Positions 3,434 to 23,038 of a stretch of DNA of 64,000 bases are shown here, in pieces (within the stretch, counting starts at the first letter, position 1; every line of letters begins with the position of its first letter). This stretch comes from an uncultured Candidatus Saccharibacteria bacterium (GTDB taxonomy: Bacteria > Patescibacteriota > UBA1384 > XYA2-FULL-43-10 > 1-14-0-10-43-13). Made by a program: the position numbers and the translations under genes. The stretch lies in contig CAZIYE010000001.1 of NCBI GenBank assembly GCA_964543385.1, positions 486,755 to 550,754 on the forward strand, written 5' to 3'. The notes under the pieces are model-generated. The model had not been told where the DNA came from. It did not search any database and saw only the letters and a program-made list of their open reading frames with translations.

Positions 3434-6400
3434 CTAGAATCCGATATGGGTCCAGGCAACTGTTTGAGGATTTTGCCATATGCCCATGCGGGTATCACTT
3501 TCACATCCGTTACCTTTTTTTGATCCACAAATACCACCGCATGAGATTGAGTCGTTTCCTAATCTGGGCTGGCACATATTCACCGTTATCATCCCTGCTT
3601 GATCAAAATAATCTACATCTTCTTTTCGGCCTGTCATAATCTGGATTGGATATATCGGCTCATTGTCAGTTGTATTATATTTCTCGTAATTTTGGATCCT
3701 CATCATATTTTCTATCAATTTTCTTGCCTTATTCTGAGAAGCCTCAACCATTTTCTTTTTGAGTAGTTCGTTTATGTTGTTATTTTGCTTGATTTGTCCG
3801 CCCCATACTCCCATACCAGTTGTATCATTTATCTTTGGCTGAGGAGCTTCAATCTTTGGATAATATCCATCAGCAGTACAGTAATAGTAAATTTTTTGAC
3901 CCAAAAGATATCCTGCCAAAGCTATAACTACTGCTGCTGTCCACCCCACCGGACCAAGACCAAGCAAAGGCGCGACCACGAGATTATAAACAGCCACAGT
4001 TATCAAAGGAGTCAGGGTGCCAGGGATCATTCCCAAGCTATCTTCTACTCCCGCGATTTGCTTGTCTAAAAGCTTTTCTACTGCAATTGATACAATTTTG
4101 TATACCACTAATGTTTCCGCAGCAGTAAAAGCTTGTTTTGCTGCATCTTTGGCTTCTGCTAAGTCAGAGATCTTATTTAATTCCATAAACTCTTTAGCGT
4201 TGCTCGACAGTTGAGCAATATCTTTCACTCTTGAAATCTCTTCATATATCTTCCAAGACTTATAAAGATCATAACCAAGTTTAAATATTTCAAGAGACTG
4301 TCCAGCTTTAAGGCCCAGTGTTTTATCTGCCCAAGTAAAAAGCTTTGTCGTAATAACAGTAGTTAATACCCCCCCCACAGTTGGCAGAGACATAGTTGAA
4401 CCATCAGCTACAATTGTATTATGTGTTGTGCTATCACCTTTAACAATGTTATCTAGAGTTATTGATTTCAAGCCCCAGTCGCCGGTACCGACACCGACAA
4501 GAAGTCCTTTGGCCAAATCTCCACTTATTGGGAAGCCAAACCATTCCTCGGAATTATCTGAGAGGAAGTTGCTGAAGAAATCAAATCCATTACCACTTGC
4601 AAACGTTGTAAAGGCATCTTTATCTCCGGCCACAAAATCCTTAGCAAATTTTGCTACCTGGATCCATTCGTCGACATTTTTAATTGCCTCAAAATTTTTG
4701 CCTAGTAAATGGCCATTTGTAAGGCCTGTTTTAATATATCTGGCAAGGGCAGCTGCCTTTATCTCAGCATTACCCTGAAGCAGGTCTCTGGCCATGCCTG
4801 GGTAAGAGTTCTCGTCTAATTTCCAAAGAGCAATATCGAGCATCTTGAATTGGAGATTATCCAAAGAAGCTTTTCTTATTGATTTCTGTACCGTTGTTAG
4901 TAATTCTCCATTTTTGGGAGTAAAGTTTGCACCGCTTGGTTGATAATAAGATTCTGGATTAGAAAGTCTGTCCAATCTGCCTTCTGGGTCTCCATTGTTT
5001 TTATTATATTCAGAAACACATTTATTATATTGGTCTCCACTCGCTTGGTTGGTCGATTTCTGGCAGGCCGCTGGAGCGGCTGCATTATTGCTCACAATGC
5101 TTGTATTTAACTCGTCGATCTTACTTTGCAAATTCTCCGGCGAATAATTATATTGTTCATCAACTTGATTAGTTACTGATGTTGAAGTCGATGTTTCAGT
5201 ATAATTTTTCCCCAGAGAATCGATCAAGGCATCACCGAAATTGCCGCTACCTGTTTTTGGGCAATTATCACCATTACATACCTTTCTTGTTTCCGGATTA
5301 CTGTAAATACCATTAACATCAACCCAAGCCGCCCTCTGATATGCTTCGACATCAGGCGCCCCTATTATAGAAGTTTTTATGTCATCATAGGCTATGCGCA
5401 TCTCTTGTGGAATTGCAGTCTTACACTCGTCGTCTCCATTTGCTGAGCAGTGACTTTTCCTTATATTGTCTATAGGAGCCATAACATAATTAACTCCTAG
5501 AGAAATCGCTGCAATTTGGAAATACTTCATATCCCCACTAACTAGATTAGCGATATCTTCCAAAGGCATATCAACGCCGACTCTTATCTCTTTATTATTG
5601 TAATTTGCCTTAACGTTATATATAAAATCGTGAATTTTATCACTCAATACTTCTTTACCCCATGCGACGATGTCCTCTTTAAACGATCCGTCAACATTTC
5701 CCGAAGGATTTTGGGAGATTGCGGCCTTGCAGATATTATATCGATCGTTGATCTCCTTGCTGAGGGTGGTTCTGGCCTGTTGGACTTCAGTGAGCGCAAC
5801 CTTTAAATCTTCCTGCCATTTTTTATATTCGCTAGAGTTAATATAATCATCCGTTTTTTGCCCATTCTTTGAAACAGGCTTCTGTTTTTCAAGTTCGGCA
5901 AGCTTGGCTTCTGCATTATGCAGACTAGTATCAAGCGGCGATACGGTAGGGTCCGAACTTGCTTCATTTAAACAGTCTTTTGTCTGTCCTGTCGGGCCAA
6001 AAGAAACATGAACAACGCGACTATACAATCCCGTAAAAGAAGCAGCTTTTGAAGAATCAAGCCCAAATTGGTAGTCTATTTTCTGCGCACCAATTTCCAT
6101 CAAAATAGTTCCTGAGTTCATTGGATCAGCAATAATTCTTTGGAAGGTTCCCTCAGGCAAGTTTGCTCTTTCATCAAGCTGAAAAGTGAATATCTGATTT
6201 AAATGATCATATAACTTATCCCACTTCCCATACCATTCGTCTGTTGCCGAACCAGTTCGACAAACTTTTTGTCCGTCGGTTTCGATTATTTTCCCCTGGC
6301 ACTTGAAAATATTATTTAAGTTCTTAACAAGAGTAAGAGCTGTCTCTGACTGATTTTGGTCTAAACCAAGGCTTTCTCCTATTTTGCTACCAACAAGTTT

Positions 6401-9400
6401 CAATCCTGTTTGTTCGCCAACTAGTTGATTGTATTTATCTGGAGTCATACTATTCAAGCCAGCCAAGAGGTCATAAGTAGAGTTTGAGCTTATACCAAAC
6501 TGTTTATCTAAATAATTCAACTGCTGATAAAACTCTATATTCCCAGAATTATTTTGTTGACTCTTGCCTGCAACAGCCAGTGCAGATTTCAGTCGATCTT
6601 TGATTTTTTGATCGATATTGTTAATTGCAGTAAGGGCCGGGCCATTTATAACCAACGATCCCCTTAAATGATTTTGAATTTGCCGTGCTTTGTATTCGGC
6701 GCCAGTATTTTTAATTTTCTTGGCATAGCTATCGCCAAAGATATCTACCAGGGATTTCTCATCAAAAATTTCTTCACCATTATCATCAGAGAGGGGAATG
6801 TTGAAAGATAGAGCGATATTGATAGCGCGGGACCTATCAAAGGCTTCACCGAATGTTGCCCCAAAGAATGTTCCTCTTGGAAGATTCAATGATTGCTCAA
6901 CTTTTGATTGTCCGAAGTTCGATACAAAATCACTAATTTTTTCGCCTTTTAGCGGGAAATAATCTAGGCCGATTAAGCTTCCAAGTATAGATCCGCCAAC
7001 TTGATTTAGAGTACAGTTTCTTGATATTTGGTCTTTTGCATTAAATACCGATAGGACGGTCCCGGGCTTTAAATTTAGCTCCTGATCGATATAGTTAGTA
7101 CTTATTCTGTATAACGATGTAAAATCACCGCCAAGGACATTGTAGAGGTCGTCGGGCCCAAATAATGATGGGTCAATGTTTAGGCCTGAAGCATCAAAAA
7201 TTTTATAGTTAATTACTTTTTCTGCAACTGCTCTACCAACTAATAGTTTGTAATTGGGAACTGGTAAATTTGTGCTGTCTTTGATAAACAATTTACTTAG
7301 AATCTTTTTATCAATATTATTTTTATTGCCTATAGCATCGATAAGTTGTTGGGTTTTTTCTTTATTATTTCCAAATGCATATTGTACATTTTTATCAGTG
7401 ATAAAAGACAACAGGTTATTTCTAATATCAGAGATTTGTGACTTATCACTCGCACTGTCTGCTAATCTTTGGGCTAATTCCTCCAATATATTGCCATATC
7501 TTTGGTCTTTGTTAATCAGTGAATATCGCTGGGCTTCTTCGGGGCTTTTGAAACAATGACGACCCTTCTTGTCGTAATAACAGAAGGAGTTATTCTCTAG
7601 GCTGGTTTCATTTATCGAGAATCCATCCTGTTTAGTATAAGAAACAGGGCATTGATTGCTATCAGATGCGGTATCAGCATAAGGGTTTACAAATACATAG
7701 TCTGGGTTTAATACATCGTCGTTATATTGATCAAGCTCGCTAGGTAAGATCTTGCCGCTTACTAATTTTGTATAAATATCAAGAACATTCTTGCTTATCT
7801 TTAGATTGTTCTCGAGCAAATTTTGTTCATCGCTAGACAGATTTACAGAGTAAAGATTCTTGTCCTTAGTAAATAGTGACTTCGTATCACCGTCTTCTAG
7901 GCCAAGAAGATTATCAATAGACAGGGCCTCTGAAAGTGCTTTTTGCCATGCCAAAACACCTCCAGATTTTAGTGCTTCGTAGTTTCCGCTACCAAGCCCT
8001 AATCGCATCATCAAGTCGCTTTCAGCAGATTTTAATGCATCGTTAAATCCTCTATCCTTAATATTTTGAACGATACTATCAGTATTAAAACTGTTTGCAT
8101 TTGTCTTGCTGCCAAATTGTTCAATTATTTTGTCTTGTTTTTGCTTCCAATTGTCTCTTGCTGAGGCAACCAATAAATCGTAATCAGGCCAGTTTTCAGC
8201 CTGCATCTGGCTCAAAACGTTTAATAATTTATTGCTACTATTAATACCCGTTATATCGGTAGGTAATTCCCCCAGCGGCGATTTGGCTTTATTCAATTTA
8301 CTTGCCAGGTAACTGTTTACTGCTTCATCAATCTTAGTTTTGTCTGCATACTTTAATAATTCTGAGGCATTTGTAGCAAAATCAGCCATTGTAGAGACCG
8401 AATTCTTTTCCTGAAAATAGAATGGTGGCATCGAAAAGACTTCCTCAATCTTAGCTTGGCCGATAGACTTGAAGAACGCGTCACTTCCCCCCATTCCTTT
8501 TTTCTCGAAATTCTCAACTAAATATAAGAGAGAGTTACTTGGTAAACCAAGCTTTGATTCTGCCATATTGGCACCAAATGAGATAAAAAGATCAGTCGGC
8601 GATACATTACCTGCCAAGAACCCAAATATTAGAGAGGAGGCCTTAAACGGCGAGATATTATTATTTCCTCCTCCGCTATCATTGCTAGTCAGATCCATAC
8701 TATTTATTTGAGAAAGTTTAAGGGAGTCCGAAGTTGGTATCTCTCGGCCGGATATGATTTCAGAAGATATCCTAAGGAGTTCGTTGGCATTAAAGATAAT
8801 AGAATTCAGTTCATCAATCTTGTTATTTGCCTCTGCCTTGGCGGTGGTGAAGTTCTTAATTGAATCTAGCTGGGTGACTATAGAGTCAATCTGGCTTGTT
8901 GCAGAACTCATTTTCTCCCACGTATTTTGTATTTTTATTGTATTTGCATCACTAGATTCAAAAACATTTTTGAGATTACTAATTAAATCATTAATTTCAG
9001 TATATGTATTCTCGAAACCTGAATCCTTGCTTGCAAAGATTTTCCAATCACCCTTAATATCAGCCAATAATTTTTGTGCCTGATTCAATCTTGATGTATA
9101 AAATGCGATAGTACTGTTGCTAATTCTTAATTCTGGATTCGTGTTTAATAAATCTATTTTGGTTTTGTCTTCTTTGTTGATTAATTTGTTTGCAACACCT
9201 GTATATAAAATTTGTGAACCGATCCTCTTGAAGACGGGGCTATTATTAGCTGTAGAACAACCAAAGATCCTTTGCAGGTCAAGTTTCTCGAGCCCAGCTA
9301 GCATGGACTTTTCTTCTGTCACAATAAAATCATCAGTTCGTGTTTCCACATTTTGGTCAGAGTATACTAGTGAATACTCAACTTTTTGTGTTATTGGAAT

Positions 9401-11854
9401 AGCTGGTAGAGCGTTAGAAATCTTAGAACTGCCTTGAAAAATAATTTGTCCCTCTGGTGTAATTTCATAGTCTAGAGTTTTGTTTAGCTTTGGGGCACTA
9501 CATTCGTTGCTTGATTTTTGAATGTTTCCACGAAGCCACTGTCGGAAAATAAATCTGCCAAATTCATCTGGATTAATATCTTGTGTTACGCCCCCTTCGA
9601 TAACTCGGATTTTTTTATAACTCTGGTCTGAGCTTCCCTTTGGTGCTACGCTATCATCTGCTAGGAGCCGTGCCAGAGTGTAGATGCCGATAGTTGATAG
9701 GCTCTCATGATCACCACTTAGCGCTCCCTCCCAAGTGTCTCTAATATCCGGTTGTTTCTCTGTTGGGCCTGGTAATTGATAAGCACCATTATTCATTGAA
9801 AAATATTTTAAACCATAGAGTGTGTCATCAAGTCTCTTCTTGCCTACCATCGCAGCAAAATCTGCAGAATTGATTCTTTCTAGAATAAAATTATTTGCCG
9901 TGCCTGCACCAAGATTTAGGTCATTATCAATCAATCCAGGATTGTTTTTAATCAAAGTCGACCTCAATGAGCCGATTTTATCCGAGAGGTTGCCGAAGGT
10001 TACTGCTTCTTTCGGCCAAGAGTTGCCTGCTAGATTCAAATCTTTTTCGATAACTTTTGCGCCTACATAGTTAGCGAAAACATCATTTTTTGAAGTAACA
10101 AAGGCATCTAAATCACCAGCGTTCAGATTCATCTCATGTTCTAACTTTCTCTGGCCAATCTTGATGAGAGTTGATGGCAGGTCACTACCTGATAGCGAGC
10201 CAAAAGGTATTCCTAGCTTCTTCTCAATTGCTGATCGGCCGATAGTGTATTTTATTTTCTCAATGTCTGAAAGATTCTGACCAATAAATATTTCTCTTGG
10301 CAACCCTAAATAATCAGCAACATAAGTACTTCCTAGCTTCTTGAGGGTATCTTCTACATTAAATCCGGCAAAGTTCAGACTCTTCGATTCTAAGACATTA
10401 CCTAACAGGGATTTTCCTAATATCTGAATTATATCTTCAAAATTAGCCTTGCTGAGATCTCCTTCATAAGAAGAGATGTCGCTATTCAAGTTGCCCAGCA
10501 AACCATTGACTGATTCGGAGGCAGCCGATTTTAGAAGACTCATCATATCAAATGGATCTCTCTCTCCGGATGCATTCCAGCCGTCGGTAGTTTGCCAAGC
10601 TAATTTAATTGGTTGTATCGGTTGTTTATATTTCTTTGTGCCTCCAGTGTTCTTTTTAACAACCTTCGTACACCTGATATCATCGATCTCTGATATATCT
10701 ATAGCTTGCCCTTCAGCATGAGAGGACAGATTGCGTTCCTCTACAAAAGAGTCCTCCTTTTCGGTAAGGCTAGTTAGGTAGGCCTCATATTGAGCACCAT
10801 TCTTATCTTCAATTTCAAGATCTGGGGTCGTTCCTTTTTGTTTGCCACAGTCAGCGGCAGTCATTTCATCGCTACAACCTTTAGACACAGACTTTTGGCT
10901 ATTAGCCAGAGTTTGTACCACAGAATCAGATTCTGTTGATTTATCCTGCCTTTGCAGAATGCGATTAACTCTTATTCTCCAGTGGCCAGCCCCACCCTGA
11001 TTTTTTGGAGTAATTAGGTAGACCAAGGTTTTAAGAACCCTTACATCAATATTCAGCGAGTCTATAGATTCTTTTAGTTTTTCTGCTAAATATGGCTTAT
11101 CGTGGTTAACATAATTAATAATTCTTTCGCGCCCGATTCCTGTCACACAAACCAAAGTGTCTAAATCAACAGAAGGAACTTTTCCTTTTTTTAAATTATC
11201 TTCTTCATCTGCCCAAATATCTCTTATTTTATTTTCGCCAACATTCTTTCTTGCAGCTTCGGCAAGACGATTAAAAAGTTGCAGATTGTCGAATCTCTCA
11301 GTAGAGGTTAGGTTATCTCTTCCGATCTTCAAATATTTTAAATATTCAATTGGCGTCTTGAAATCTTTGTTAGATTGCAAATTTTTATCTACGATCTCTG
11401 TTTGATCCTTAGGCAAGTTTTTATATAGGGCATCAAAATCTTCATCAAAATTTGGGAGTATATTGGAAAGACAGGAAAGTGATTTCAAGGCCGCTAAATC
11501 ACTTTGTTTCATAATTATTTTCTGTTCTGATGAATTTGTTAACAGATCATCAAAAGTAATAAGGCTATCTTGATCGGAGAACTGAGCCATTGTTTCTAAT
11601 AATTTCTTATATGCCAAAGAGTCGCTCAGTGTTTTTTTTACCTTACACTGCTGGTTATCTTTAGTTGGTATATAAGAATACTTTTTCTGATCAGCAACTT
11701 TTATTAGCAAAGGAATCTCTGGATCATAATCAATCTCTCCATCGTTGTCATCGGCTGCTTTTGCATTCAAGGCAAAAGCATATCCTGTGGATCCAAATGC
11801 GATTGATATTATCAATAAGTAAATAACAGTCTGTTTTAAAATATATTTCAACAT
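3434..11854 (-). CDS. Giant (~2,806 aa) secreted or surface-anchored protein with an N-terminal signal peptide, coiled-coil-rich body, two C-terminal TM helices and a Cys-rich tail
   Basis: It is a single uninterrupted 8.4 kb ORF. The likely start is MLKYILKQTVIYLLIISIAFGSTGYAFALNA (signal peptide), whose ATG overlaps the stop of the upstream M23 gene (TAATG). The C-terminus has hydrophobic segments 'LTPLITVAVYNLVVAPLLGLGPVGWTAAVVIALAGYLLG' and then a Cys-rich tail (CGGICGSKKGNGCESDTRMGIW). It is the last gene of the T4SS-like operon. An alternative start at 11887 extends it by 11 aa. Confidence 0.8.
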   Translation of the reverse strand: MLKYILKQTVIYLLIISIAFGSTGYAFALNAKAADDNDGEIDYDPEIPLLIKVADQKKYSYIPTKDNQQCKVKKTLSDSLAYKKLLETMAQFSDQDSLITFDDLLTNSSEQKIIMKQSDLAALKSLSCLSNILPNFDEDFDALYKNLPKDQTEIVDKNLQSNKDFKTPIEYLKYLKIGRDNLTSTERFDNLQLFNRLAEAARKNVGENKIRDIWADEEDNLKKGKVPSVDLDTLVCVTGIGRERIINYVNHDKPYLAEKLKESIDSLNIDVRVLKTLVYLITPKNQGGAGHWRIRVNRILQRQDKSTESDSVVQTLANSQKSVSKGCSDEMTAADCGKQKGTTPDLEIEDKNGAQYEAYLTSLTEKEDSFVEERNLSSHAEGQAIDISEIDDIRCTKVVKKNTGGTKKYKQPIQPIKLAWQTTDGWNASGERDPFDMMSLLKSAASESVNGLLGNLNSDISSYEGDLSKANFEDIIQILGKSLLGNVLESKSLNFAGFNVEDTLKKLGSTYVADYLGLPREIFIGQNLSDIEKIKYTIGRSAIEKKLGIPFGSLSGSDLPSTLIKIGQRKLEHEMNLNAGDLDAFVTSKNDVFANYVGAKVIEKDLNLAGNSWPKEAVTFGNLSDKIGSLRSTLIKNNPGLIDNDLNLGAGTANNFILERINSADFAAMVGKKRLDDTLYGLKYFSMNNGAYQLPGPTEKQPDIRDTWEGALSGDHESLSTIGIYTLARLLADDSVAPKGSSDQSYKKIRVIEGGVTQDINPDEFGRFIFRQWLRGNIQKSSNECSAPKLNKTLDYEITPEGQIIFQGSSKISNALPAIPITQKVEYSLVYSDQNVETRTDDFIVTEEKSMLAGLEKLDLQRIFGCSTANNSPVFKRIGSQILYTGVANKLINKEDKTKIDLLNTNPELRISNSTIAFYTSRLNQAQKLLADIKGDWKIFASKDSGFENTYTEINDLISNLKNVFESSDANTIKIQNTWEKMSSATSQIDSIVTQLDSIKNFTTAKAEANNKIDELNSIIFNANELLRISSEIISGREIPTSDSLKLSQINSMDLTSNDSGGGNNNISPFKASSLIFGFLAGNVSPTDLFISFGANMAESKLGLPSNSLLYLVENFEKKGMGGSDAFFKSIGQAKIEEVFSMPPFYFQEKNSVSTMADFATNASELLKYADKTKIDEAVNSYLASKLNKAKSPLGELPTDITGINSSNKLLNVLSQMQAENWPDYDLLVASARDNWKQKQDKIIEQFGSKTNANSFNTDSIVQNIKDRGFNDALKSAESDLMMRLGLGSGNYEALKSGGVLAWQKALSEALSIDNLLGLEDGDTKSLFTKDKNLYSVNLSSDEQNLLENNLKISKNVLDIYTKLVSGKILPSELDQYNDDVLNPDYVFVNPYADTASDSNQCPVSYTKQDGFSINETSLENNSFCYYDKKGRHCFKSPEEAQRYSLINKDQRYGNILEELAQRLADSASDKSQISDIRNNLLSFITDKNVQYAFGNNKEKTQQLIDAIGNKNNIDKKILSKLFIKDSTNLPVPNYKLLVGRAVAEKVINYKIFDASGLNIDPSLFGPDDLYNVLGGDFTSLYRISTNYIDQELNLKPGTVLSVFNAKDQISRNCTLNQVGGSILGSLIGLDYFPLKGEKISDFVSNFGQSKVEQSLNLPRGTFFGATFGEAFDRSRAINIALSFNIPLSDDNGEEIFDEKSLVDIFGDSYAKKIKNTGAEYKARQIQNHLRGSLVINGPALTAINNIDQKIKDRLKSALAVAGKSQQNNSGNIEFYQQLNYLDKQFGISSNSTYDLLAGLNSMTPDKYNQLVGEQTGLKLVGSKIGESLGLDQNQSETALTLVKNLNNIFKCQGKIIETDGQKVCRTGSATDEWYGKWDKLYDHLNQIFTFQLDERANLPEGTFQRIIADPMNSGTILMEIGAQKIDYQFGLDSSKAASFTGLYSRVVHVSFGPTGQTKDCLNEASSDPTVSPLDTSLHNAEAKLAELEKQKPVSKNGQKTDDYINSSEYKKWQEDLKVALTEVQQARTTLSKEINDRYNICKAAISQNPSGNVDGSFKEDIVAWGKEVLSDKIHDFIYNVKANYNNKEIRVGVDMPLEDIANLVSGDMKYFQIAAISLGVNYVMAPIDNIRKSHCSANGDDECKTAIPQEMRIAYDDIKTSIIGAPDVEAYQRAAWVDVNGIYSNPETRKVCNGDNCPKTGSGNFGDALIDSLGKNYTETSTSTSVTNQVDEQYNYSPENLQSKIDELNTSIVSNNAAAPAACQKSTNQASGDQYNKCVSEYNKNNGDPEGRLDRLSNPESYYQPSGANFTPKNGELLTTVQKSIRKASLDNLQFKMLDIALWKLDENSYPGMARDLLQGNAEIKAAALARYIKTGLTNGHLLGKNFEAIKNVDEWIQVAKFAKDFVAGDKDAFTTFASGNGFDFFSNFLSDNSEEWFGFPISGDLAKGLLVGVGTGDWGLKSITLDNIVKGDSTTHNTIVADGSTMSLPTVGGVLTTVITTKLFTWADKTLGLKAGQSLEIFKLGYDLYKSWKIYEEISRVKDIAQLSSNAKEFMELNKISDLAEAKDAAKQAFTAAETLVVYKIVSIAVEKLLDKQIAGVEDSLGMIPGTLTPLITVAVYNLVVAPLLGLGPVGWTAAVVIALAGYLLGQKIYYYCTADGYYPKIEAPQPKINDTTGMGVWGGQIKQNNNINELLKKKMVEASQNKARKLIENMMRIQNYEKYNTTDNEPIYPIQIMTGRKEDVDYFDQAGMITVNMCQPRLGNDSISCGGICGSKKGNGCESDTRMGIWQNPQTVAWTHIGF

Positions 11855-13578
11855 TATTGTCCAAGAACTTTCTTCATATTGTTCCACAAATATTCGCCCC
11901 AGGATTTTCCTTCAGTCTGCTCATATTCAATCTTATCGAGAAGTGTTGTGGTGACGGGGACACCACAATAACTAAGCTCGAGATGCAATTGAGAATAGTC
12001 TGATATTGTAGCCACCTTACCTATAGTCTTGTCCCGAGTGACGCCGGTGCCTTCTCCGACATTCTTATCCAAGTCAACATGGGCGTATAGAATTTCATAA
12101 TCACCATTTTTAATAACAATCTTCTTATGACCTGTTCCATCGTCTGAAATATTAGTGACCTGGCCGTCGAACATTGGGTAGACCAAAGTATCCTTATTAG
12201 TATAGAGGTCAACTGCATCAGCTTTACCCTGACCATAGTACATGTATGTACTATGTCCGCTTTCATTGCTAGGCATTTCTTTTCGTAAGGGAGTGCCATA
12301 ATGGAGCTCCCAATTAAACCCAGATATATTTTCTAATGGAAGTCTGGTCTTTGCTTGCATAATAGGAGATTGCTGGTCAGCTGATTCCAAAATAGATTTT
12401 ACTGAAGTTATAATCTCTCGTCCAAGAACAGGGTCGTTATTTACTAAATACTGGTCGATTTTGGATGAAGTATCAGCTATTTTGTTTTTAGTTTCTTGAT
12501 TTGATGATGATACATCTGTTCCGGTGGATGCTTCCAATTGCGATAGTTGCTTTTGAATATCGGAAAATGTTTGGTTATTTAATTTAGCTTTTGCCTCTTT
12601 ATCACCTGATGCCATAATTGTTTTCTGAATCGCAGCGGAATCTGTAACAGGATCCGCAGGCTTATTAAATGTTGATCCTGCTTTTCCAGTCCCAGCATCT
12701 CCTATAATGGCAGACATAATTGCAATGCCCGCTACAATGATGACAATTGCCAAAATAATCCACGGTAAATATGGCAAGATTGCTTTCCATAGGGCAGCTA
12801 GGGCTTCTTTGGAAAACTTTTTCTTTAATTTATCAATTATCTTTTTACGTGCTTCCTTATTTAACCAATCCAGCCAAGAAGACTTCTGCTGGTTTTGTGC
12901 TTGATCATCTTGGGATTTTTTTTGCTCAGCTGCGTCAGAATCAGCTTTCTCTTGGTCTAATCTTTCTTGATCAGGATTATTTCCATCGTTTTCCTCATTA
13001 CCATCACTCTCTTCCGATTGTCGTGCTCCCATAACCTGGATCGTCATGGAGCCAGGAGTACCGCTCTTGCTACCAATGGCAGTAATATATAAAACTCCAT
13101 TCTCACACTCGGGGCTAGTTTTGATAATAAATGACTTACTTGAACCATCCTCAGTCTGGTCACTCACTCCATGGAATACCCCGCTCACCCCACCTTCGGC
13201 TTCCCAGAAATATCCTTCATCCTCGGTAAAATCTATAGTTCCGCCTGACAAAGTAACACTCTGATTCGGGCCGACCGACGATGGACCGTCAATAATAACT
13301 ACTGGTTGGATAGGAGATACAAGGGCTCCTCTCGTTACTGCAGGCGATCCGCTTACGGCTTTTTGGCGCGCCTCACGAAGTTTTGAATTGAAGAGGTTTA
13401 GCAATTCTTGTGCCTTCTTCTTGTTTTTTATTTTTTTTAGCTGCTCACTAAAATAGCGGCTGGCTTGTGCACTATTCCATGCGCCGCTTTTTACTTTATT
13501 TATATAAGAAGGTATTGATCTTTCTACAAACCTAATGAATTTTGCTTCTTTGTCGTCCACAAACCCCTCCATTATCAC
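11854..13578 (-). CDS. Membrane-anchored M23 (LytM-type) peptidoglycan endopeptidase-domain protein
   Basis: A central single TM segment (LPWIILAIVIIVAGIAIMSAIIG) is present. The C-terminal ~130 aa carry M23 motifs: GHSTYMYYGQGKADAVD (HxxxD region), VYPMFDGQVTNIS, KIVIKNGDYEILYAHVD, and IGKVATISDYSQLHLEL (the HLH(F)E-like second His motif). The N-terminal half is acidic and low-complexity. Confidence 0.7.
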   Translation of the reverse strand: MIMEGFVDDKEAKFIRFVERSIPSYINKVKSGAWNSAQASRYFSEQLKKIKNKKKAQELLNLFNSKLREARQKAVSGSPAVTRGALVSPIQPVVIIDGPSSVGPNQSVTLSGGTIDFTEDEGYFWEAEGGVSGVFHGVSDQTEDGSSKSFIIKTSPECENGVLYITAIGSKSGTPGSMTIQVMGARQSEESDGNEENDGNNPDQERLDQEKADSDAAEQKKSQDDQAQNQQKSSWLDWLNKEARKKIIDKLKKKFSKEALAALWKAILPYLPWIILAIVIIVAGIAIMSAIIGDAGTGKAGSTFNKPADPVTDSAAIQKTIMASGDKEAKAKLNNQTFSDIQKQLSQLEASTGTDVSSSNQETKNKIADTSSKIDQYLVNNDPVLGREIITSVKSILESADQQSPIMQAKTRLPLENISGFNWELHYGTPLRKEMPSNESGHSTYMYYGQGKADAVDLYTNKDTLVYPMFDGQVTNISDDGTGHKKIVIKNGDYEILYAHVDLDKNVGEGTGVTRDKTIGKVATISDYSQLHLELSYCGVPVTTTLLDKIEYEQTEGKSWGEYLWNNMKKVLGQ

Positions 13579-14974: not shown

Positions 14975-16255
14975 TTAGTATTGCTCAATTCTTAAGTGAA
15001 AGTGGGCCTTGTGCTTATCCCATGCTACCATGCGCCCTGGCTTTTTATTTTCTATAGCATAGCTATTTACTGCCGCTATAACCTCTGAGTCTTCGTAACC
15101 AATCCTTGTGGCGCCACAATTGATCAGAAGTTTACCCAGGTCTATCATCATTTGTCTATTTGCAGCATCATAATTATTATTAGCTATAGCTGGTCTCTCC
15201 CTAACATTCATCATGTGGCCAGGTAGTAATATATCAGCGTCGATTCCTTTGGCGTGGGAGGCATGACCGTCAGCCTTTTTGCATTGCCCGCTCAATTCAC
15301 CGATAACAAGTTTTGGTCTGCCGGCTTCAGCCCACTGTTTGCTAACAGATACAAGAATATTAATTAATGACGGCTTGCCCCAATGTTCTTCTTTATCGCC
15401 GCTCTTTGTGTAATACTTTTCAAGTGCTGGAACTTCTACCCAACCGCAGGATGAGCCCTTATAACCAAGGTTAAGGTTTGTTTTGCAAAGAAGAGAATTT
15501 GGAATGAGTTTAGTAGTTACCGATGCAAGTGAGAGACAGCCATTATTAAGTCCTTGAAAATTTTTCCATGTGCGCAATGCATATCCTGGTCCATTTGGGT
15601 TTGGGTAAGGTGCTCCCCAATTCCACCCAGGGTTTTTCGTATTCTCTGGTGCCCTATCTAGAGGAAAACCCATTTTTTTCCACTCCCTTAATCTGGCGGG
15701 GCCTCTGTTATAAAGCATTCCCGCAGCCTTCACAGTTTTTTCGTCAGCCCCGTCTGCTTTCAAACCATTATCTTCGAGATGGTATTTTATATATGCAGCT
15801 GCGGCTAATGCAGAATCAGCGAAATCGTCTGGATTACCTGTGGGCTTATCTGAATATTTTTTATAAATATTACCGGCCCACTTACCGTCAAAATCCTCAA
15901 TCTGAAAAGGTCCCTTTGCATTTCCGCCTCGTGCCCAAATTCCATTAGCACCAGCAGAAGCCTTAATAGAATCACCGTGCTCTGCCATGAATATAGCTCC
16001 AAGCAAGGCAGGTTGTATCCCAACCTTGTTAGCAGCTTCCTCAATGGCCGATTGATACCCGCTAGGAGCTGCATCCCAGGACGTACAGCGTATATTGCCA
16101 AATAAATTAACAGGGTTTACGGTTTCCTTTATTCTTCCGCTCCACAGAGATGTTCCAGCTGCAGTAAAAGCGAGTGAAAGTACTGCGGCCAAACCTAAAA
16201 CAGCCAGTATTATACCGGCCTGAGTAAAACCCTTGCTGTTTCTGTGAAACATCAC
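14975..16255 (-). CDS. Bifunctional cell-wall hydrolase with an N-terminal lytic transglycosylase (SLT) domain and a C-terminal M15/VanY-like peptidase domain, acting as a VirB1/CwlT-like T4SS accessory
   Basis: A signal/TM N-terminus is present. SLT motifs are GIQPALLGAIFMAEHGDS (catalytic Glu context) and GPFQI. C-terminal 'ASHAKGIDADI' (H-x2-G-x-D-x-D) and terminal 'DKHKAHFHLRIE' (HxH) match the LAS/M15 zinc-peptidase pattern. The gene lies directly downstream of virB4. Confidence 0.65.
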   Translation of the reverse strand: MMFHRNSKGFTQAGIILAVLGLAAVLSLAFTAAGTSLWSGRIKETVNPVNLFGNIRCTSWDAAPSGYQSAIEEAANKVGIQPALLGAIFMAEHGDSIKASAGANGIWARGGNAKGPFQIEDFDGKWAGNIYKKYSDKPTGNPDDFADSALAAAAYIKYHLEDNGLKADGADEKTVKAAGMLYNRGPARLREWKKMGFPLDRAPENTKNPGWNWGAPYPNPNGPGYALRTWKNFQGLNNGCLSLASVTTKLIPNSLLCKTNLNLGYKGSSCGWVEVPALEKYYTKSGDKEEHWGKPSLINILVSVSKQWAEAGRPKLVIGELSGQCKKADGHASHAKGIDADILLPGHMMNVRERPAIANNNYDAANRQMMIDLGKLLINCGATRIGYEDSEVIAAVNSYAIENKKPGRMVAWDKHKAHFHLRIEQY

Positions 16256-16256
16256 A

Positions 16257-18110
16257 TTATTGTCCTAATAATTGCTTTGGATCAGTGGTAATTATCTGAT
16301 CTTCTGTATATGAAGCAACAGCCTTGAATGCAACATGATTTAATCCCGCAAAGAACAGTCCTTCCCCGACGTCGGACTCAAGAAGAAGGTATTTCTCTCC
16401 TTCGGTTAAATTAAAAGTTTCAGCTACGATATCTATTGATGCCGTTGATTGTTTCATAAGTATTTGCATTGATGAGTTGGCCACTACTGCTTTACCAAAC
16501 CTACTGCCCAAGAAATCCTCAACATCTTGGCTTATTATTGTAAGGCCAAGATAATATTTTCTGGCTCTTTTTGCCAATCCATGAAGAAATTTTGCAGAAT
16601 CCTCATATTGCATCATCCACCATGCTTCATCTACTATCATCAAGCGCTGCTTCATATTCATGCGGACTTTGGTCCAAATATAATCAAGAACGGTGTAGAT
16701 TGCTATTGGTCTCAGCTGTTCTTCGAGATCCCTAACGGAGAAGACCACAAAGCCGGGGTTTAATTCGAAATTCGTTGGCTGATTGTATAGATTTGCAAAT
16801 GAACCCTCTACATATTTTGATAATCTTGCTCGAAGTGACCCAGTTCCTTCTAGATTAGATAAAATATTATAGAAATCTTGAAGGAGGGGAGGTTCATTTT
16901 TCTGACTTGCTGGATCGACAGTGATGTCTTTTATTGCGTATGTTTCATAAAGAGCTTTGTCTATAATAGAATCTTCTTCAGGGCTGAGTCCGCCCGCCAT
17001 CAAATTAATAAGTCCATGTAGGGAAGAAATATTTGAACGGAGAACATCTTCTCCTGCCTCATTTGGATTGAGGGGTAGATCGAAAGGGTTGATTCTTTTG
17101 TCGGAGTTTAATGATATTTCCAGATAGCTGCCACCCACTGAATCGCAAAGAGTCTTATATTCATTCTCCGGGTCTATTACAATGACATCTGTCCCCAGCA
17201 TCAAATATCGGAGCGCTTCTAGTTTCACAAAGTAAGATTTACCAGAACCAGATTTTGCCAATACTATAGAATTAGCATTTTCCAATGAAAATCGGTCAAA
17301 TATAATTAATGAGTTATTGTGTCGATTTATTCCGTACAATATCCCATCATCCTGAGTCAATTCACTTGATGTAAAAGGAAATGTTGAAGATAGAGAAGCG
17401 GTATCGAGATTTCTAAGAACACTAATCCTATCAGACATGATCGGCAGCGTGGCAGTAAAGCCTTGCTCCATTTGGAATATTGATTGTTTTGTATAGATTA
17501 GCATTCCGCCAAGGGTTGATTCTACTTGGTCAGTTATCGTTTTTAGTTCCTCCTCTGATTTTGCGTACAGTGTGAAGTAGAGTCCAAACTGAAAAAGTCG
17601 AACCTCTCCTCTTTGAAGGACATCTCTTAATGATTCGACGTCGCCTAGCGCAGTTTCAAGCTCTGGATCCCTAGGTGAGCCTTTTTCTGCTTGAATTTGC
17701 ATTGTGGATTCAAGTTTTCCTACCTGAGTTTTGAGCTCAGTCATCACATCTTTAGATTCTAATGGGTGGATGTATAGCCCTATGTCCATTGTGATGTCAT
17801 AGTTTATGATTGGAGATAGCCAGTTTGTTTCTAAAAATCGGGGGTAAGTAAAGACGAATAATGTTTTAGTAAATTGAGTGCCAACTTGGAGACTGTTTGG
17901 GCTCACAATAAATGAGGCTGGTGCAATAATATCTCCAATAGCCACAGTCCCTTTTCGGAACTGTTCTTGGAGTTTTTTGCTCTGATCCCAAAAACCGTTT
18001 TCCTTAAGCTTTTTTGATTCGACTTCCCGTTGCTGTAGGTTGGCCTGAGCCATTGATCTTGGGTCTGGTGTTTGATTTTGTCCTGCTAAAACAGGGTTAT
18101 TATTGTCCAT
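16257..18110 (-). CDS. virB4: VirB4/TrbE/CagE-family T4SS ATPase, central plus C-terminal ATPase portion
   Basis: Walker A is 'SIVLAKSGSGKSYFV' and Walker B is 'RLMIVDEAWWMM'. The VirB4 middle-domain signature 'FTKTLFVFTYPRFLETNWLSPII' is present. The likely start MDNNNP is at 18110. The ORF-track start at 18176 lies inside the upstream ORF. Confidence 0.85.
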   Translation of the reverse strand: MDNNNPVLAGQNQTPDPRSMAQANLQQREVESKKLKENGFWDQSKKLQEQFRKGTVAIGDIIAPASFIVSPNSLQVGTQFTKTLFVFTYPRFLETNWLSPIINYDITMDIGLYIHPLESKDVMTELKTQVGKLESTMQIQAEKGSPRDPELETALGDVESLRDVLQRGEVRLFQFGLYFTLYAKSEEELKTITDQVESTLGGMLIYTKQSIFQMEQGFTATLPIMSDRISVLRNLDTASLSSTFPFTSSELTQDDGILYGINRHNNSLIIFDRFSLENANSIVLAKSGSGKSYFVKLEALRYLMLGTDVIVIDPENEYKTLCDSVGGSYLEISLNSDKRINPFDLPLNPNEAGEDVLRSNISSLHGLINLMAGGLSPEEDSIIDKALYETYAIKDITVDPASQKNEPPLLQDFYNILSNLEGTGSLRARLSKYVEGSFANLYNQPTNFELNPGFVVFSVRDLEEQLRPIAIYTVLDYIWTKVRMNMKQRLMIVDEAWWMMQYEDSAKFLHGLAKRARKYYLGLTIISQDVEDFLGSRFGKAVVANSSMQILMKQSTASIDIVAETFNLTEGEKYLLLESDVGEGLFFAGLNHVAFKAVASYTEDQIITTDPKQLLGQ

Positions 18111-19071
18111 TATTTTGTATGGTTGTATTAATTGGTTGAGCAGGGGCTGATTGTATAGGCATATTATTTGTATCAACAGCCGATGGTATCTGTTGGATTT
18201 GCTGTATCAATTGGTCAGTTGTATTTGATTGTATAGTATTGTTGCCAACGACTGGTTGTGTTCCTTGCGGGGTTTGTGCTGTCTTATCGGCTTCTTGGCG
18301 TCGTCGTGAGGCGATTTGCCTTTGTTGTTCCTCTACCATGTCAGCGTTATCAATTGATTCTTGAGAATCAACTTGTTCTACCGGTTGTTGTGTATTCTCA
18401 GAAATCTCATTCCTCGCAATTATTACTGGCGCTGACAATGTCTCCGCATCGCTAACCCTTTCCTTCGCCGACTCATCAGGATTATATATCTGGTAGAAGA
18501 GCTCTATTATTTGTTCAGTAGAAAGCTGGAAGCAATGTAAGCCCATGCTAGCCAAGCCCGAGGCAACAATACTCGCTCTTTGCCCTAGTTGGTCAGTAGA
18601 TGATTTGAACTCCGTATCAGTAACTTTGATATGGTCAAACGTTTGTGTCTTGGCAAACAGACTATCAAAGACATTTAATTTTTTTATATTAATTGGATCG
18701 TAGGGGACGACTAGATAAAAGGTCTTTTTCATAATATTGGCTATTGAGATCAGTTTTGACACAAAATCAACATAATCACCAATTTGCATTTTTATAAGTT
18801 CATTGATGCTTTTTTCAGAGGCCCTTTTTATTTTTTCAAGATAGGGATTCAAGTCTAATCGTCTCGATCTAATAACAATTTCAACAGGGAAGTGTAGAGA
18901 ATTAAGAAAACTCTGATATTGAAATATAAGTGAGTTTTGTTCTTGTTCACTTTTCAATGCAAAATTTACGGCAGATACTTCTAAAATCATGCGGTAACTA
19001 CCATCTTTCAATATCATTATACCGTCTTTGATACCGGCTATAGGAACAGATTGTTGGGTCGATAATGCCAT
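18100..19071 (-). CDS. VirB4 N-terminal domain (CagE/TrbE/VirB N-terminal-like) encoded as a separate 323-aa ORF ending in a Q/N/P/T-rich linker
   Basis: 'IAGIKDGIMILKDGSYRMILEVSAVNFALKSEQEQNSLIFQYQSFLNSLHFPVEIVIRS' matches the characteristic VirB4 N-terminus. A later segment 'ELFYQIYNPDE' also fits. The tail is low-complexity QQ/PT-rich. Its last 11 nt (ATGGACAATAA) contain the start of the ATPase ORF, and the low-complexity coding continues in both frames. Confidence 0.65.
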   Translation of the reverse strand: MALSTQQSVPIAGIKDGIMILKDGSYRMILEVSAVNFALKSEQEQNSLIFQYQSFLNSLHFPVEIVIRSRRLDLNPYLEKIKRASEKSINELIKMQIGDYVDFVSKLISIANIMKKTFYLVVPYDPINIKKLNVFDSLFAKTQTFDHIKVTDTEFKSSTDQLGQRASIVASGLASMGLHCFQLSTEQIIELFYQIYNPDESAKERVSDAETLSAPVIIARNEISENTQQPVEQVDSQESIDNADMVEEQQRQIASRRRQEADKTAQTPQGTQPVVGNNTIQSNTTDQLIQQIQQIPSAVDTNNMPIQSAPAQPINTTIQNNGQ

Positions 19072-19577: not shown

Positions 19578-20396
19578 TTATTCGGGCAATGGGATAATAT
19601 AATCAGTCTTGTTTTGCATTGCTAAGTCTTCTTCTTCAAACCAATAAGCCGCAATTTGATCTATTAACTGTCCTTTTGACGGGTTATTTTTCGGATTTAT
19701 TTTTCTGCACTTCATAACAGCATTACCAGCCGTAACCATTCTCTCAACGATTGTCATAAGCATACCGGCAGTCTTCGTTTCGAGCATATCTTTTGGGTGT
19801 CCTGCCTTGGTTAGTGCCTCTATTGCCCTTCTCTTGGCATCGTTTGGTACTAGAATTAAGACTTTAAGATCAGCATGAGTATAGACAAGCTCACTGACCT
19901 CTGCTGCTACTTCTTCATATATCATATTCACATATCGACTACAGTATGGCAATATTTCCAGAAATTCCTCCCAATACTCAGTCACCCTCATAATCTTTTT
20001 TGACTTCTCGAGCAGAATGATCCTTCCAATCGATTTGACGGTTTCTTCAAAATTATTTTCATCAACCTTAAAATCGATGTTATTTTTCTCACAAGTTTCG
20101 TTTAGTTTACCAATCACAATTTTCTTATCAGCTTTCTTAAGGACATCAATATTCATTTTTGATGCAAGGTCGATGAATTTTATTCGCTGGTCTCCGATAG
20201 TAATATTTAAAACATCACAGTAAGATCCCTCGGCCAGAGAAGCAGACATCATAATGGGGAACGATTCCTTTCTTATAAGATCTATATATTCGGCCTTTTT
20301 ATTGCGCAGAAAAACCAGACTCTCACTAAAAGAACTGGTGTTAACGGCTGACAGGATAATATCATGTAATATTTTTTTTGCTTCCTCTTCTTGCAT
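19578..20396 (-). CDS. Hypothetical cytoplasmic protein, T4SS-operon-associated
   Basis: The 272-aa product has no TM segments or recognisable motifs. It is tightly packed between the VirB6-like and VirB3-like genes on the same strand. Confidence 0.5.
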   Translation of the reverse strand: MQEEEAKKILHDIILSAVNTSSFSESLVFLRNKKAEYIDLIRKESFPIMMSASLAEGSYCDVLNITIGDQRIKFIDLASKMNIDVLKKADKKIVIGKLNETCEKNNIDFKVDENNFEETVKSIGRIILLEKSKKIMRVTEYWEEFLEILPYCSRYVNMIYEEVAAEVSELVYTHADLKVLILVPNDAKRRAIEALTKAGHPKDMLETKTAGMLMTIVERMVTAGNAVMKCRKINPKNNPSKGQLIDQIAAYWFEEEDLAMQNKTDYIIPLPE

Positions 20397-20413: not shown

Positions 20414-23038
20414 CTAAGTTGGCGCACCTGGCAATAATTGTGTTTCTACGGCATCGTTTAAATGGCGACGATCGGAATTCTTTGGATAAGTTTTATAATA
20501 ATCCACCATTAGTGTTCTCAGAGTTTCAGTGTCACCATTTGTGACCGCTGTCTGAAATGCATCCCAAAGTGCTGCAGCGGTCTTCGAGTCTGTACGGTGA
20601 TCTTTCTTTAGTTCTTCAACAAGCCATTTTTGACCGATAGATAAGACATCGGATTCCGGCGCTTGGCTAAGAATTGCCTCGGTGGTCTTGGCGCTATCTG
20701 CTTCACTATTCAAGTGGTACCTCATCCCCTCGGCATTAGCATAAATTCTACTCTCCTTATTTGAATCTTCAATTACCTCACCATTTCTTAGTCTTGATGT
20801 TAGCTCTTCGGTTAAGCCATCTTTTAGATCGGAGCCAAAGAAAATACTAACCGTCTCTTCAGCACTTCGCTTGGCATAGTCATTTGCAGCTCGACTATTC
20901 GTTTTGGTCATAGCAATACCTTTGTTTCTGGTATATACAACTCTTTCCATTAGTCTGATATCATCGACTCTGCCATCTTTGTCTAAATGGACCATATCTC
21001 TGAGGTGTGAATCGATATAGCCTTTATCGGGATCATCTAATTGTTTATTTAATTTATCAATCATCCTTTGCCTATTTGTTGTTGCCTTCTGTACTGCATG
21101 CGAAAATCTTTCGCTATCGAGAACTAATTGTTCGCCTTCTTGGAGAATATTCTGTGATGCAAGGATATTGGAGACTCTGCGACTGGTTGACATTACATCG
21201 AGGACGGCTTTCCTTCGTTTCTCGGTCGCTGTAGCTTCCTCTTTTGTCATTTGATCTGTCTTTGTAATCTCTGCAAGGGCTCTGGCATGTTGTCTTTTCT
21301 CATCTGCCGTCAACTGGTCGAGCGCTTTCTTTCTTGACTGCAGGTATTTGATGAGCTCTCTAACTTCTGCCGAGGAAGAATCTGATAATTTCTTGATCTC
21401 GTCTAGCATCATAACAGCCAATTGCCTTTCTTGAAGAGCGCTTCTTTCAAGAGCTGGTTTTACTGAAGCGTCGTTGAGCATTTTTTCCATACCGGCCTTT
21501 GACGATTCTTCGGCAGATCTTGCTCTGCGAAACAATTGCTGGAAAAGTTCTGCTTCTTTTGCGTCAGTACCAAGAAGCGCCAGATTTGATGCTTTTCTTT
21601 TGGCAAACTCTTCTTTGCTTTCATGATCCTTTTGACTTCCGCCGCCACTTAGCCATAAATATTGACCATTTTGTCTTAAGGCGTTATCCATACTTGTAGC
21701 AGCCCCCATCCGACCCGCGGCCATACCAGAGCCGGCTCTCCATTTCTCGTATTGCTTCCACATCGGATTTTCAGGGTCAGTGATACCTAGTTTTTGCAGT
21801 GCTTCAAGTCCATAGGCTTCATATTCGCCGACTTCACCATTACGGTTTTTTATCCACTCAATTTCCATCGTGCGGCTAAGGCCCTTATCGAGGTTATACC
21901 TCCCCTGTATACCCTCGGTAATTCCCTTAGATAATCGCGATACATGTGCTTCGTCTGCTGCTAATTTGTCCCCACCACTTCCAATCCAATTTTTACCAAG
22001 CCATCTGACCCAACCAAACTTGCCCTCTCTTTGCATATTGAGTCCAAACTTCTTATATCTTTCCCAACCAAGACTGGCTGTGGCTTTAACTCGACGACCC
22101 CAATAGTCTTTGGCATTGTTTGCAAGGAATTTAGATCCGGTGTATGTCCAAAATTTATCCATAACTACGCCACCCATCTTGAATGGTATGGCAATGGCGG
22201 CATATAAACAAAGGCCAGCCAATAAGGCACTAACTATAGGTGACGGCAGCCATGAGGTTGCTACGATAGGATTCTCAACGAATATAGTCCCAAGCCATAG
22301 GAAAAAGATTGCTGGCACTGGCATGAATGTCCATTTTAAAAATTCACTCCACCATTTACTAAAATATGGTTTTGTTTGAGGAAGAGCCAGTGTCATGAAA
22401 GCGACGGAAGAAACTATTGTCAAAAGATATATCATCCATGTTCGAACAATAAATATAAAACTGAGTACGAGGGTAAGAGCACTTCCAACAAGCATAAATA
22501 ATATTTTTACAACAACATCAAAGAACATCGAGTAAGTGAACTTTGCGAAATCTATAGATTCGCCCATCAATTTATCTCTAAAAGTATATTTATAAGTATC
22601 TCCCATGCCAGACGCTTGGCCTAGTAGGTTTGGGTCGGTAAATAAGGTGATAGACATATTGGCAAAGTCTATTACCAATTTACATATAAGATAACTAAAT
22701 TGGGCAGCAATGATTGCAAGTAAAAGGGTAGGCAATATCTTTTTAAAACTGTAAGTGTCAATTTTTAAGTGCAGTATCTCAGCGAAAGCTACTACTACTA
22801 CTACTAGGATGATAGGTATATTAATAATATTTAGAAATCCAGTATGTAGATTCTTAATATCATTATTACTTCTTAGTGTTTGTTGTATGGTCTCTGCATG
22901 GGCTTCTGAAGGCATCAAAATAATCACCATTAGAATTGTCAATAGAATAGAGAAGGTGATGTATCTATTTAATTTTAATTTATTGTTAATTAGGTGCATA
23001 TTTAAATTCACATTTTGTTTCTTTAGCACCAATAGCAT
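20414..23038 (-). CDS. VirB6/TrbL-like polytopic membrane protein with a large C-terminal coiled-coil domain
   Basis: An N-terminal signal-like segment (ILLTILMVIILMPSEAHA) precedes at least seven hydrophobic helices across aa ~60-330. The ~500-aa hydrophilic C-terminal domain is rich in coiled-coil/charged residues. Size and topology resemble Gram-positive VirB6 analogs (ConG/TcpH-like). The assignment rests on topology and context, not motifs. Confidence 0.5.
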   Translation of the reverse strand: MLLVLKKQNVNLNMHLINNKLKLNRYITFSILLTILMVIILMPSEAHAETIQQTLRSNNDIKNLHTGFLNIINIPIILVVVVVAFAEILHLKIDTYSFKKILPTLLLAIIAAQFSYLICKLVIDFANMSITLFTDPNLLGQASGMGDTYKYTFRDKLMGESIDFAKFTYSMFFDVVVKILFMLVGSALTLVLSFIFIVRTWMIYLLTIVSSVAFMTLALPQTKPYFSKWWSEFLKWTFMPVPAIFFLWLGTIFVENPIVATSWLPSPIVSALLAGLCLYAAIAIPFKMGGVVMDKFWTYTGSKFLANNAKDYWGRRVKATASLGWERYKKFGLNMQREGKFGWVRWLGKNWIGSGGDKLAADEAHVSRLSKGITEGIQGRYNLDKGLSRTMEIEWIKNRNGEVGEYEAYGLEALQKLGITDPENPMWKQYEKWRAGSGMAAGRMGAATSMDNALRQNGQYLWLSGGGSQKDHESKEEFAKRKASNLALLGTDAKEAELFQQLFRRARSAEESSKAGMEKMLNDASVKPALERSALQERQLAVMMLDEIKKLSDSSSAEVRELIKYLQSRKKALDQLTADEKRQHARALAEITKTDQMTKEEATATEKRRKAVLDVMSTSRRVSNILASQNILQEGEQLVLDSERFSHAVQKATTNRQRMIDKLNKQLDDPDKGYIDSHLRDMVHLDKDGRVDDIRLMERVVYTRNKGIAMTKTNSRAANDYAKRSAEETVSIFFGSDLKDGLTEELTSRLRNGEVIEDSNKESRIYANAEGMRYHLNSEADSAKTTEAILSQAPESDVLSIGQKWLVEELKKDHRTDSKTAAALWDAFQTAVTNGDTETLRTLMVDYYKTYPKNSDRRHLNDAVETQLLPGAPT

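Follow-up and report, generated by a model that had tools for sequence, protein, structure and literature searches.

The stretch of DNA analysed here, a window of 64,000 nucleotides (nt) from an uncultured Candidatus Saccharibacteria bacterium, carries a type IV secretion system (T4SS) whose VirB4-family ATPase is spread over two overlapping open reading frames (ORFs). Our analysis indicates that this is very probably a naturally split VirB4, in which an ancient fission would have left a TrsD-like protein (ORF1) and a shortened VirB4 (ORF2) that together rebuild one protomer. The split is conserved among relatives, which argues that it is neither an error nor a pseudogene nor a programmed frameshift. 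The initial annotation of the window had described two overlapping ORFs at this site, one encoding the N-terminal part of VirB4 and the other its Walker A/B part, with the ATG of the second inside the last 11 nt of the first, and these points were borne out: both ORFs lie on the minus strand with an 11 nt overlap that contains the ATG, and NCBIfam profiles and motifs agree with the division of the domains.

18100..19071, minus strand: ORF1, a TrsD-like protein and predicted separate gene for the VirB4 N-terminal subdomain (323 amino acids, aa; starts MALSTQQSVPIAGIKDG)
16257..18110, minus strand: ORF2, the predicted VirB4 ATPase body (617 aa), in which the second half of the N-terminal domain is followed by the RecA-like C-terminal domain
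18100..18110, minus strand: stop/start overlap of 11 nt, ATGGACAATAA, with the ATG of ORF2 within the last codons of ORF1

Fit of the two ORFs to VirB4 profiles and structures

The relation of the two ORFs to VirB4 is most evident from the VirB4_plasma profile of NCBIfam, of which positions 104-282 are covered by ORF1 (aa 5-203, E 9e-11) and positions 278-889 by ORF2 (aa 42-603). By this measure the ORFs are complementary halves that cover the full-length VirB4 profile without a gap, and the junction, which the initial annotation had proposed to place on full-length VirB4 homologs, falls between contiguous profile positions. On the CD1110 model (NF045971, conju_CD1110) ORF1 matches 2-92 and ORF2 matches 181-735, the latter with 371.4 bits and thus above the curated cut-off of 325. 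ORF2 does not reach the cut-offs of TIGR00929 and VirB4_plasma, both of them models that expect a full-length protein, and ORF1 matches positions 8-147 of TIGR00929 with an E of 9e-5. The N-terminal and ATPase domains, whose presence on one polypeptide is a hallmark of VirB4, are here found on two.

ORF2 has Pfam matches to PF19044 (E 6e-29), AAA_10 and DUF87, and its aa 248-608 resemble the VirB4 C-terminal domain structure 4AG5 (E 3e-47) as well as residues 445-735 of TrwK. The Walker A motif AKSGSGKS lies at aa 285-292 (window 17235-17258) and the Walker B motif MIVDEAW at aa 491-497 (window 16620-16640). For ORF1, the Pfam scan of the window protein returned a sub-threshold TraC_F_IV match only, and a precomputed match to the TraC-like family PF26593 is present on an identical 323-aa product in locus L090 and on all 120 listed homologues. 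In an AlphaFold2 (AF2) model of ORF1 the N-domain (aa 8-211) and a helix at 243-266 are predicted with confidence, and the tail is disordered. When this model was compared with the PDB using Foldseek, every one of the top 14 matches was a TrwK/VirB4 chain from the R388 T4SS (probability 0.94-1.0, E from 1e-3). The profile of the ORF1 alignment (A1) found no VirB4 match among PDB sequences, its single match, to a ribosomal protein, being spurious and of low complexity, and it is from the fold comparison only that we draw the predicted link between ORF1 and TrwK.

The junction and the start of ORF2

The frames of ORF1 and ORF2 are both open over 18103-18206 (~104 nt), a stretch that is neither a homopolymer nor a simple repeat. 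Low-complexity coding had been read in both frames across this junction in the initial annotation; for ORF1 this stands, its tail having a Q/N/P/T/S content of 65% against 28% in the folded part, whereas the second-frame extension MIQIICLYNQPLLNQLIQPYKI, which would begin at a TTG at 18176, is not conserved coding and has a stop 6-7 codons 5' of the ATG in relatives L082 and L084. Within ORF2 the N-terminal peptide MDNN(N/T)P...GQNQ..DPR is kept in close relatives with a dN/dS (ratio of nonsynonymous to synonymous substitution rates) of ~0.11. Because the extension from the TTG is not conserved, while this peptide is both conserved and under purifying selection, the ATG at 18110 is predicted to be the true start of ORF2. 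An alternative genetic code at the junction was dismissed since the stop of ORF1 is TAA, and we know of no bacterial code in which TAA is reassigned.

Conservation of the split and selection on both genes

With the N-domain of ORF1 as query, 527 homologues were retrieved, and the best 120 of them (56-92% identity) have lengths of 284-370 aa without exception. For ORF2, the best 120 homologues (72-100% identity) likewise all fall within 582-698 aa. An exhaustive search over 50%-identity cluster representatives gave 2,692 relatives of ORF1; among the best 150 of these, 149 are not full-length (97-443 aa) and one has 898 aa. At the level of the locus we looked at 78 loci that come from genomes of different species, with the labels Berkelbacteria, Saccharimonadia, Paceibacterota and Parcubacteria, to which loci of close relatives were added, and the split set used below consists of the 79 loci in which both parts could be evaluated, taking in the window and a few duplicate records.

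In all 79 loci ORF1 is closed by a stop of its own, with the ATPase gene next in line, a two-gene arrangement in orthologues being the finding that the initial annotation had named as telling against a broken gene. The geometry of the junction varies. The commonest form is a 1 nt overlap (TAATG/TGATG; 26 of 79), with overlaps of 4-32 nt or gaps of 0-451 nt elsewhere, among them a 59 nt spacer between the two genes of the Berkelbacteria metagenome-assembled genome CG10_43_13 (L001). Relative to ORF1, ORF2 lies in frame +2 at 47 loci, in frame +1 at 19 and in frame 0 at 13, and at 28 loci the ORF2 frame is open only past the ORF1 stop, therefore no single indel could fuse the genes there. Close relatives with 84-92% identity, from independent samples, keep the two ORFs with overlaps of 14, 11, 11 and 1 nt (14 nt in L082, 11 nt in L004 and L083, and 1 nt, TAATG, in L084/L085), and no slippery or stimulatory element was recognisable at the junction as conserved among them.

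The window sequence itself is reproduced without any difference over 4,854 nt, junction included, in the Logan assembly of SRR12261223, and the identical 617-aa product of ORF2 is present on 6 contigs. Compared with relatives, the folded parts of both ORFs have dN values of 0.014-0.09 with saturated dS (0.05-0.09, again with saturated dS, for the folded N-domain of ORF1); dS is saturated in most comparisons, and dN/dS is accordingly given for some segments only. The ORF1 tail changes faster, with dN of 0.39-0.67, dN/dS of 0.17-0.41 and indels that stay in-frame. Both genes are under purifying selection.

Signs of damage, which may represent real pseudogenes or assembly errors in the respective records, are seen in two of the 78 loci. 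In L025 (1706-2650) the ORF1 frame is broken after 78 aa on a contig with a coverage of 2.8x, and in L078 (5108-6027, complete genome CP064960.1) no in-frame sequence was found for the N-terminal ~130 residues of the ATPase gene. Among stand-alone TrsD-like proteins, P0217, P0218, P0242, P0249 and P0250 have N-terminal extensions of 100-150 aa. The extension of P0217 is Q/P/S-rich and of low complexity, and that of P0249 is hydrophobic with possibly transmembrane segments, such that it could be a VirB3-like/TrsD fusion.

A fused relative

The one full-length protein among the best 150 cluster representatives, P0209, is a natural single-chain VirB4 of 898 aa (L086:5001-7697; also L087 and L088) that was found in three independent assemblies from the Sequence Read Archive (SRA) and belongs to a related Patescibacteria lineage. 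It shares 39% identity with the N-domain of ORF1 and 58% with ORF2, and its aa 3-882 match VirB4 profile positions 92-893 continuously. As at the window locus, a PrgI gene lies upstream and the operon context is the same; unlike the window, both parts are in one frame, connected via a ~100-aa P/A-rich linker, and the IDN helix of ORF1 described below is absent. As P0209 is the sole full-length protein among those representatives, the simplest reading is that of a secondary re-fusion, and to judge from its sequence P0209 shows that the two VirB4 parts can work as one chain. For the folding of P0209 a mixed alignment (A2) was discarded as it had placed ORF1 homologues on the ATPase region; alignment A4 was acceptable for this use.

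Architecture of ORF1

ORF1 can be divided into three segments.

18427..19071, minus strand: folded N-domain, aa 1-215, highly conserved in alignment A1, with a predicted local distance difference test score (pLDDT) of mostly 70-93
18283..18357, minus strand: IDN motif and helix, aa 239-263, SIDNADMVEEQQRQIASRRRQEADK, conserved in A1
18103..18273, minus strand: Q/N/P/T-rich disordered C-terminal tail, aa 267-323, pLDDT <50, with both length and sequence varying in A1

Across the protein, conservation in A1 is highest in the N-domain. In the second segment I240, D241 and N242 are invariant or nearly so, and the helix predicted by AF2 at 243-266 has a pLDDT of ~89. The (I/V)DN motif is present in 43 of 43 ORF1s of the clade with at least 50% identity compared with 1 of 36 in the more distant clade, which is mostly labelled Saccharimonadia, and the hypervariable tail that follows the helix measures 68-143 aa in the former against ~19 aa in the latter.

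It is possible, if on balance doubtful, that in the Berkelbacteria-like clade of the window the IDN helix and tail form an acquired functional module as opposed to a leftover linker. The helix might dock the VirB4 halves in place of the lost covalent link or recruit another partner, and the tail might act as a flexible spacer. If the helix and tail were such a module, the re-fusion in P0209 would show that evolution can both split and rejoin the gene at this site.

Alternative explanations

Among the alternatives to a naturally split VirB4, the one that survives best is that ORF1 has become an accessory factor in its own right, such as an adaptor or regulator that acts via its helix and tail, and that ORF2 works alone as a shortened VirB4. 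It could draw on the literature on TrsD, which has no assigned function and in Gracilibacteria does not adjoin virB4 (Quinonero-Coronel et al. 2025, Microb Genom, PMC12102498; here and below we refer to the sections of that study that deal with TrsD and the Patescibacteria T4SS), and on the absence of the IDN helix and tail from single-chain VirB4 as well as from P0209. We nevertheless consider it improbable, given that conservation in ORF1 is highest in the N-domain and not in the helix or tail, that the ATPase gene nearly always follows ORF1 directly, and that the fusion in P0209 puts the N-domain exactly at the VirB4 N-terminus within one continuous profile match.

Programmed frameshifting (+1/-2) or reinitiation might also yield a fused VirB4 besides the two separate products, and the ~104 nt of overlapping open frames would permit this in the present genome, just as some T4SS lineages do use a single-chain protein. 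The frame relation is however not conserved in orthologues, stops preclude a single shift in the 28 loci mentioned above, many loci have gaps of 50-450 nt, and close relatives share no recognisable slippery or stimulatory element, all of which makes a fused product of this kind very unlikely.

There is next to no room for a single ~940-aa virB4 broken by a sequencing or assembly indel in a low-complexity stretch. Such DNA is error-prone, one indel would fuse the two frames that are open over 18103-18206, and a fused relative exists in P0209, but the split recurs in 79 loci across species, assemblers and samples with differing junction geometry, the Logan assembly and the 6 contigs agree with the window, the stretch lacks the homopolymer or simple repeat composition, and the N-terminus of ORF2 from the ATG at 18110 is conserved and under selection. 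A decaying pseudogene with a non-functional T4SS can be set aside just as firmly, for it has only the look of a 'broken' gene in its favour, and against it stand the low dN of the folded parts, the intact Walker A and B motifs, a whole operon that is syntenic and intact, and the essentiality of the homologous TrsD and T4SS genes in S. epibionticum (Quinonero-Coronel et al. 2025). The single ~940-aa gene with a frameshift, error or decay that the initial annotation had entertained is thus contradicted by the split loci, the half-length homologues, the identical assembly and the purifying selection, and the genuinely split VirB4 with overlapping stop and start that it had offered in its place is supported by the 79 orthologous loci.

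Several observations do weigh against reading ORF1 and ORF2 as the two parts of one split VirB4. With the TrsD/TraD model NF041427, ORF1 gives an E of 3e-6 and 27.1 bits where the curated cut-off is 200, and because it is so far under this cut-off we regard ORF1 as a remote relative of staphylococcal TrsD that lies outside the narrow NCBIfam family. No clear Shine-Dalgarno sequence was seen 5' of ORF2, and because of this the translational coupling of ORF1 and ORF2 is something that we can only infer; most genes of the same operon are likewise without one, which makes the check uninformative here. Since TrsD and virB4 are apart in Gracilibacteria (Quinonero-Coronel et al. 2025), their adjacency is not obligatory. 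The model of P0209 from alignment A4 is poor (predicted template modelling score, pTM, 0.35; ATPase domain pLDDT <50), and its Foldseek matches, which are to TrwK/VirB4 only, are colinear over <=832 columns at a TM of ~0.14. Support for the junction of the window itself comes from comparison at the level of assemblies and not of reads.

Operon and genomic context

The T4SS operon on the minus strand has the order 692-aa protein, 874-aa membrane protein, 272-aa protein, PrgI, ORF1 and ORF2, and continues 3' of ORF2 with an SLT+M74 hydrolase, a PD40 beta-propeller protein, an M23 peptidase and a 2,817-aa protein. ORF1 and ORF2 are thereby accompanied by VirB3-like, VirB6-like and hydrolase genes, as is the case for loci of VirB4-family T4SS ATPases.

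20414..23038, minus strand: 874-aa polytopic membrane protein, VirB6/TrbL-like by synteny
19578..20396, minus strand: conserved 272-aa protein, function unassigned, with a syntenic gene of 262-272 aa in L001, L003 and L084
19089..19511, minus strand: PrgI-family (VirB3-like) membrane protein (PF12666, E 2e-10), directly upstream of ORF1
14975..16255, minus strand: cell-wall hydrolase with SLT lytic transglycosylase (PF01464, E 6e-4) and M74 endopeptidase (PF03411, E 4e-11) domains, predicted VirB1-like role, immediately downstream of ORF2

The position of PrgI is the same in orthologous loci. The 874-aa protein of the window has no direct Pfam match, and its syntenic orthologues of 879-936 aa have TrbL_3/TrbL matches; for the 272-aa protein the Pfam and NCBIfam scans gave no family match. 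Of the proteins scanned, which cover 1-42 kb of the window, none carried a relaxase or coupling-protein (T4CP) domain. Directly beyond the operon lie dnaN (967-2109, plus strand) and recF (2116-3159, plus strand), and the GC content is uniform at ~38%.

The hydrolase that follows virB4 varies between loci, with SLT+M74 in the window, Amidase_3 in L001 (9057-11084) and SLT+Amidase_2 in L003 (8892-10337), which suggests a modular exchange of the putative VirB1-like function. The T4SS operon of L001 has insertions of an IS200-type Y1 transposase gene and a '23S rRNA intervening sequence protein' gene (4313-4903, 5574-5945) that flank prgI directly upstream of the TrsD-like gene, and in L003 a gene for a '23S rRNA intervening sequence protein' is located downstream of the hydrolase. 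The 2,817-aa ORF at the distal end of the operon (3434-11887, minus strand) has no Pfam match at E <= 1e-3 and is possibly a surface or secreted protein of the T4SS.

Elsewhere in the window, the cumulative GC-skew minimum and a switch from minus- to plus-strand genes are situated near 31.3 kb (between 30341-31279 and 31387-32610), away from dnaN/recF. In a 245-aa ORF at 33398-34135 (minus strand), which is unusually long for an antitoxin, a PhdYeFM antitoxin domain is confined to the first ~58 residues; a 208-aa ORF on the opposite strand (33414-34040) overlaps it.

Comparison with known systems

The closest published counterpart is the chromosomal T4SS of Patescibacteria described by Quinonero-Coronel et al. 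(2025), with which the window shares the order VirB6-like, PrgI/VirB3, TrsD, VirB4 and then cell-wall hydrolases, the chromosomal location near dnaN/recF, and an operon in which no relaxase or coupling protein was found. That study treats TrsD as a remote homologue of the VirB4 N-terminus and counts 2,272 TrsD homologues, of which 1,664 adjoin virB4. It also reports that TrsD is within MPF_FATA confined to the pGO1 subclass and is essential in S. epibionticum ML1, and that the Patescibacteria T4SS lies close to dnaA/dnaN. The S. epibionticum T4SS was found to be essential by Wang et al. (2023, PMC10633639) and to be without recognisable coupling and relaxase proteins. Set beside the sections of Quinonero-Coronel et al. 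(2025) used here, the window is one more instance of the published Patescibacteria T4SS with no essential difference. Those sections file such proteins as TrsD homologues via CONJScan-type profiles; they do not describe TrsD and the shortened VirB4 as complementary halves with a defined break point, nor do they report fused variants.

A similar arrangement occurs on the staphylococcal conjugative plasmids pSK41/pGO1 (MPF_FATA, pGO1 subclass), in the order trsC (a small membrane protein), trsD (227 aa) and trsE (a 672-aa VirB4), and here too a hydrolase gene follows, of the CHAP type and two genes beyond trsE, behind a gene for a membrane protein. The start of pSK41 TrsE corresponds approximately to that of ORF2 on both profiles (CD1110 183 against 181; VirB4_plasma 265 against 278), and the two proteins cover 183-730 and 181-735 of CD1110 respectively, so that by these profiles the VirB4 break point is common to pSK41 TrsD/TrsE and ORF1/ORF2. 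The similarity is otherwise remote, BLASTP aligning ORF1 and TrsD at 34% over 56 residues and ORF2 with TrsE at 24% identity, and on NF041427 pSK41 TrsD scores 227.6 bits where ORF1 has 27.1. The plasmid pSK41 also differs from the window in being conjugative with a relaxase and a coupling protein, and in having a TrsD without the long disordered tail. The 'TraD' of pELF-type plasmids was rejected as a relevant homologue, being a VirD4-like protein.

Single-chain VirB4s such as TrwK of R388, CD1110/Orf16 of Tn916-like elements and the Mbov_0397 family of mycoplasma integrative and conjugative elements (ICEs) have the same domains in the same order, with an ATPase domain homologous to that of ORF2 and, in TrwK, a fold that matches ORF1. 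They are one polypeptide of ~750-900 aa, whereas here the protein would be cut at approximately residue 180-280 of the profiles, inside the N-terminal domain.

A naturally split VirB4 and its implications

Taken together, a naturally split VirB4 would have arisen by ancient gene fission inside the N-terminal domain, giving two genes. ORF1 would correspond to the first ~200 residues of VirB4, extended by the conserved helix and the disordered Q/N/P-rich tail, and ORF2 to what remains of the N-terminal domain plus the Walker A/B ATPase domain. The two genes would be expressed from one operon transcript with the PrgI/VirB3-like protein and the cell-wall hydrolase, the stop/start overlap could couple their translation and thereby yield similar amounts of the two polypeptides, and these may associate non-covalently into a complete VirB4 protomer. 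In the R388 structures 7O41 and 8RTB the N-terminal domain of the single-chain VirB4 (TrwK) contacts VirB3 and the inner-membrane complex. ORF1 would supply a part that in TrwK belongs to this contacting domain, and ORF2 would form the ATPase ring.

For annotation this means that the locus should not be flagged as frameshifted or as a pseudogene, that an intact T4SS should be recorded for this genome, and that the genes are best named TrsD-like (VirB4 N-terminal subdomain protein) and VirB4. The gain for biology is small, as the arrangement of TrsD with VirB4 and its conservation across Patescibacteria are already known and no feature of the Patescibacteria T4SS is documented to be more widespread than this pairing (Quinonero-Coronel et al. 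2025). Mildly new are the explicit complementary fit with a break point shared with pSK41, the rare fused form, and the clade-specific IDN helix with its hypervariable tail. In the single organism tested, the Patescibacteria T4SS proved essential to the epibiotic lifestyle, and for modelling this machine the end-to-end profile fit, the break point shared with pSK41 and the natural single-chain relative may be useful.

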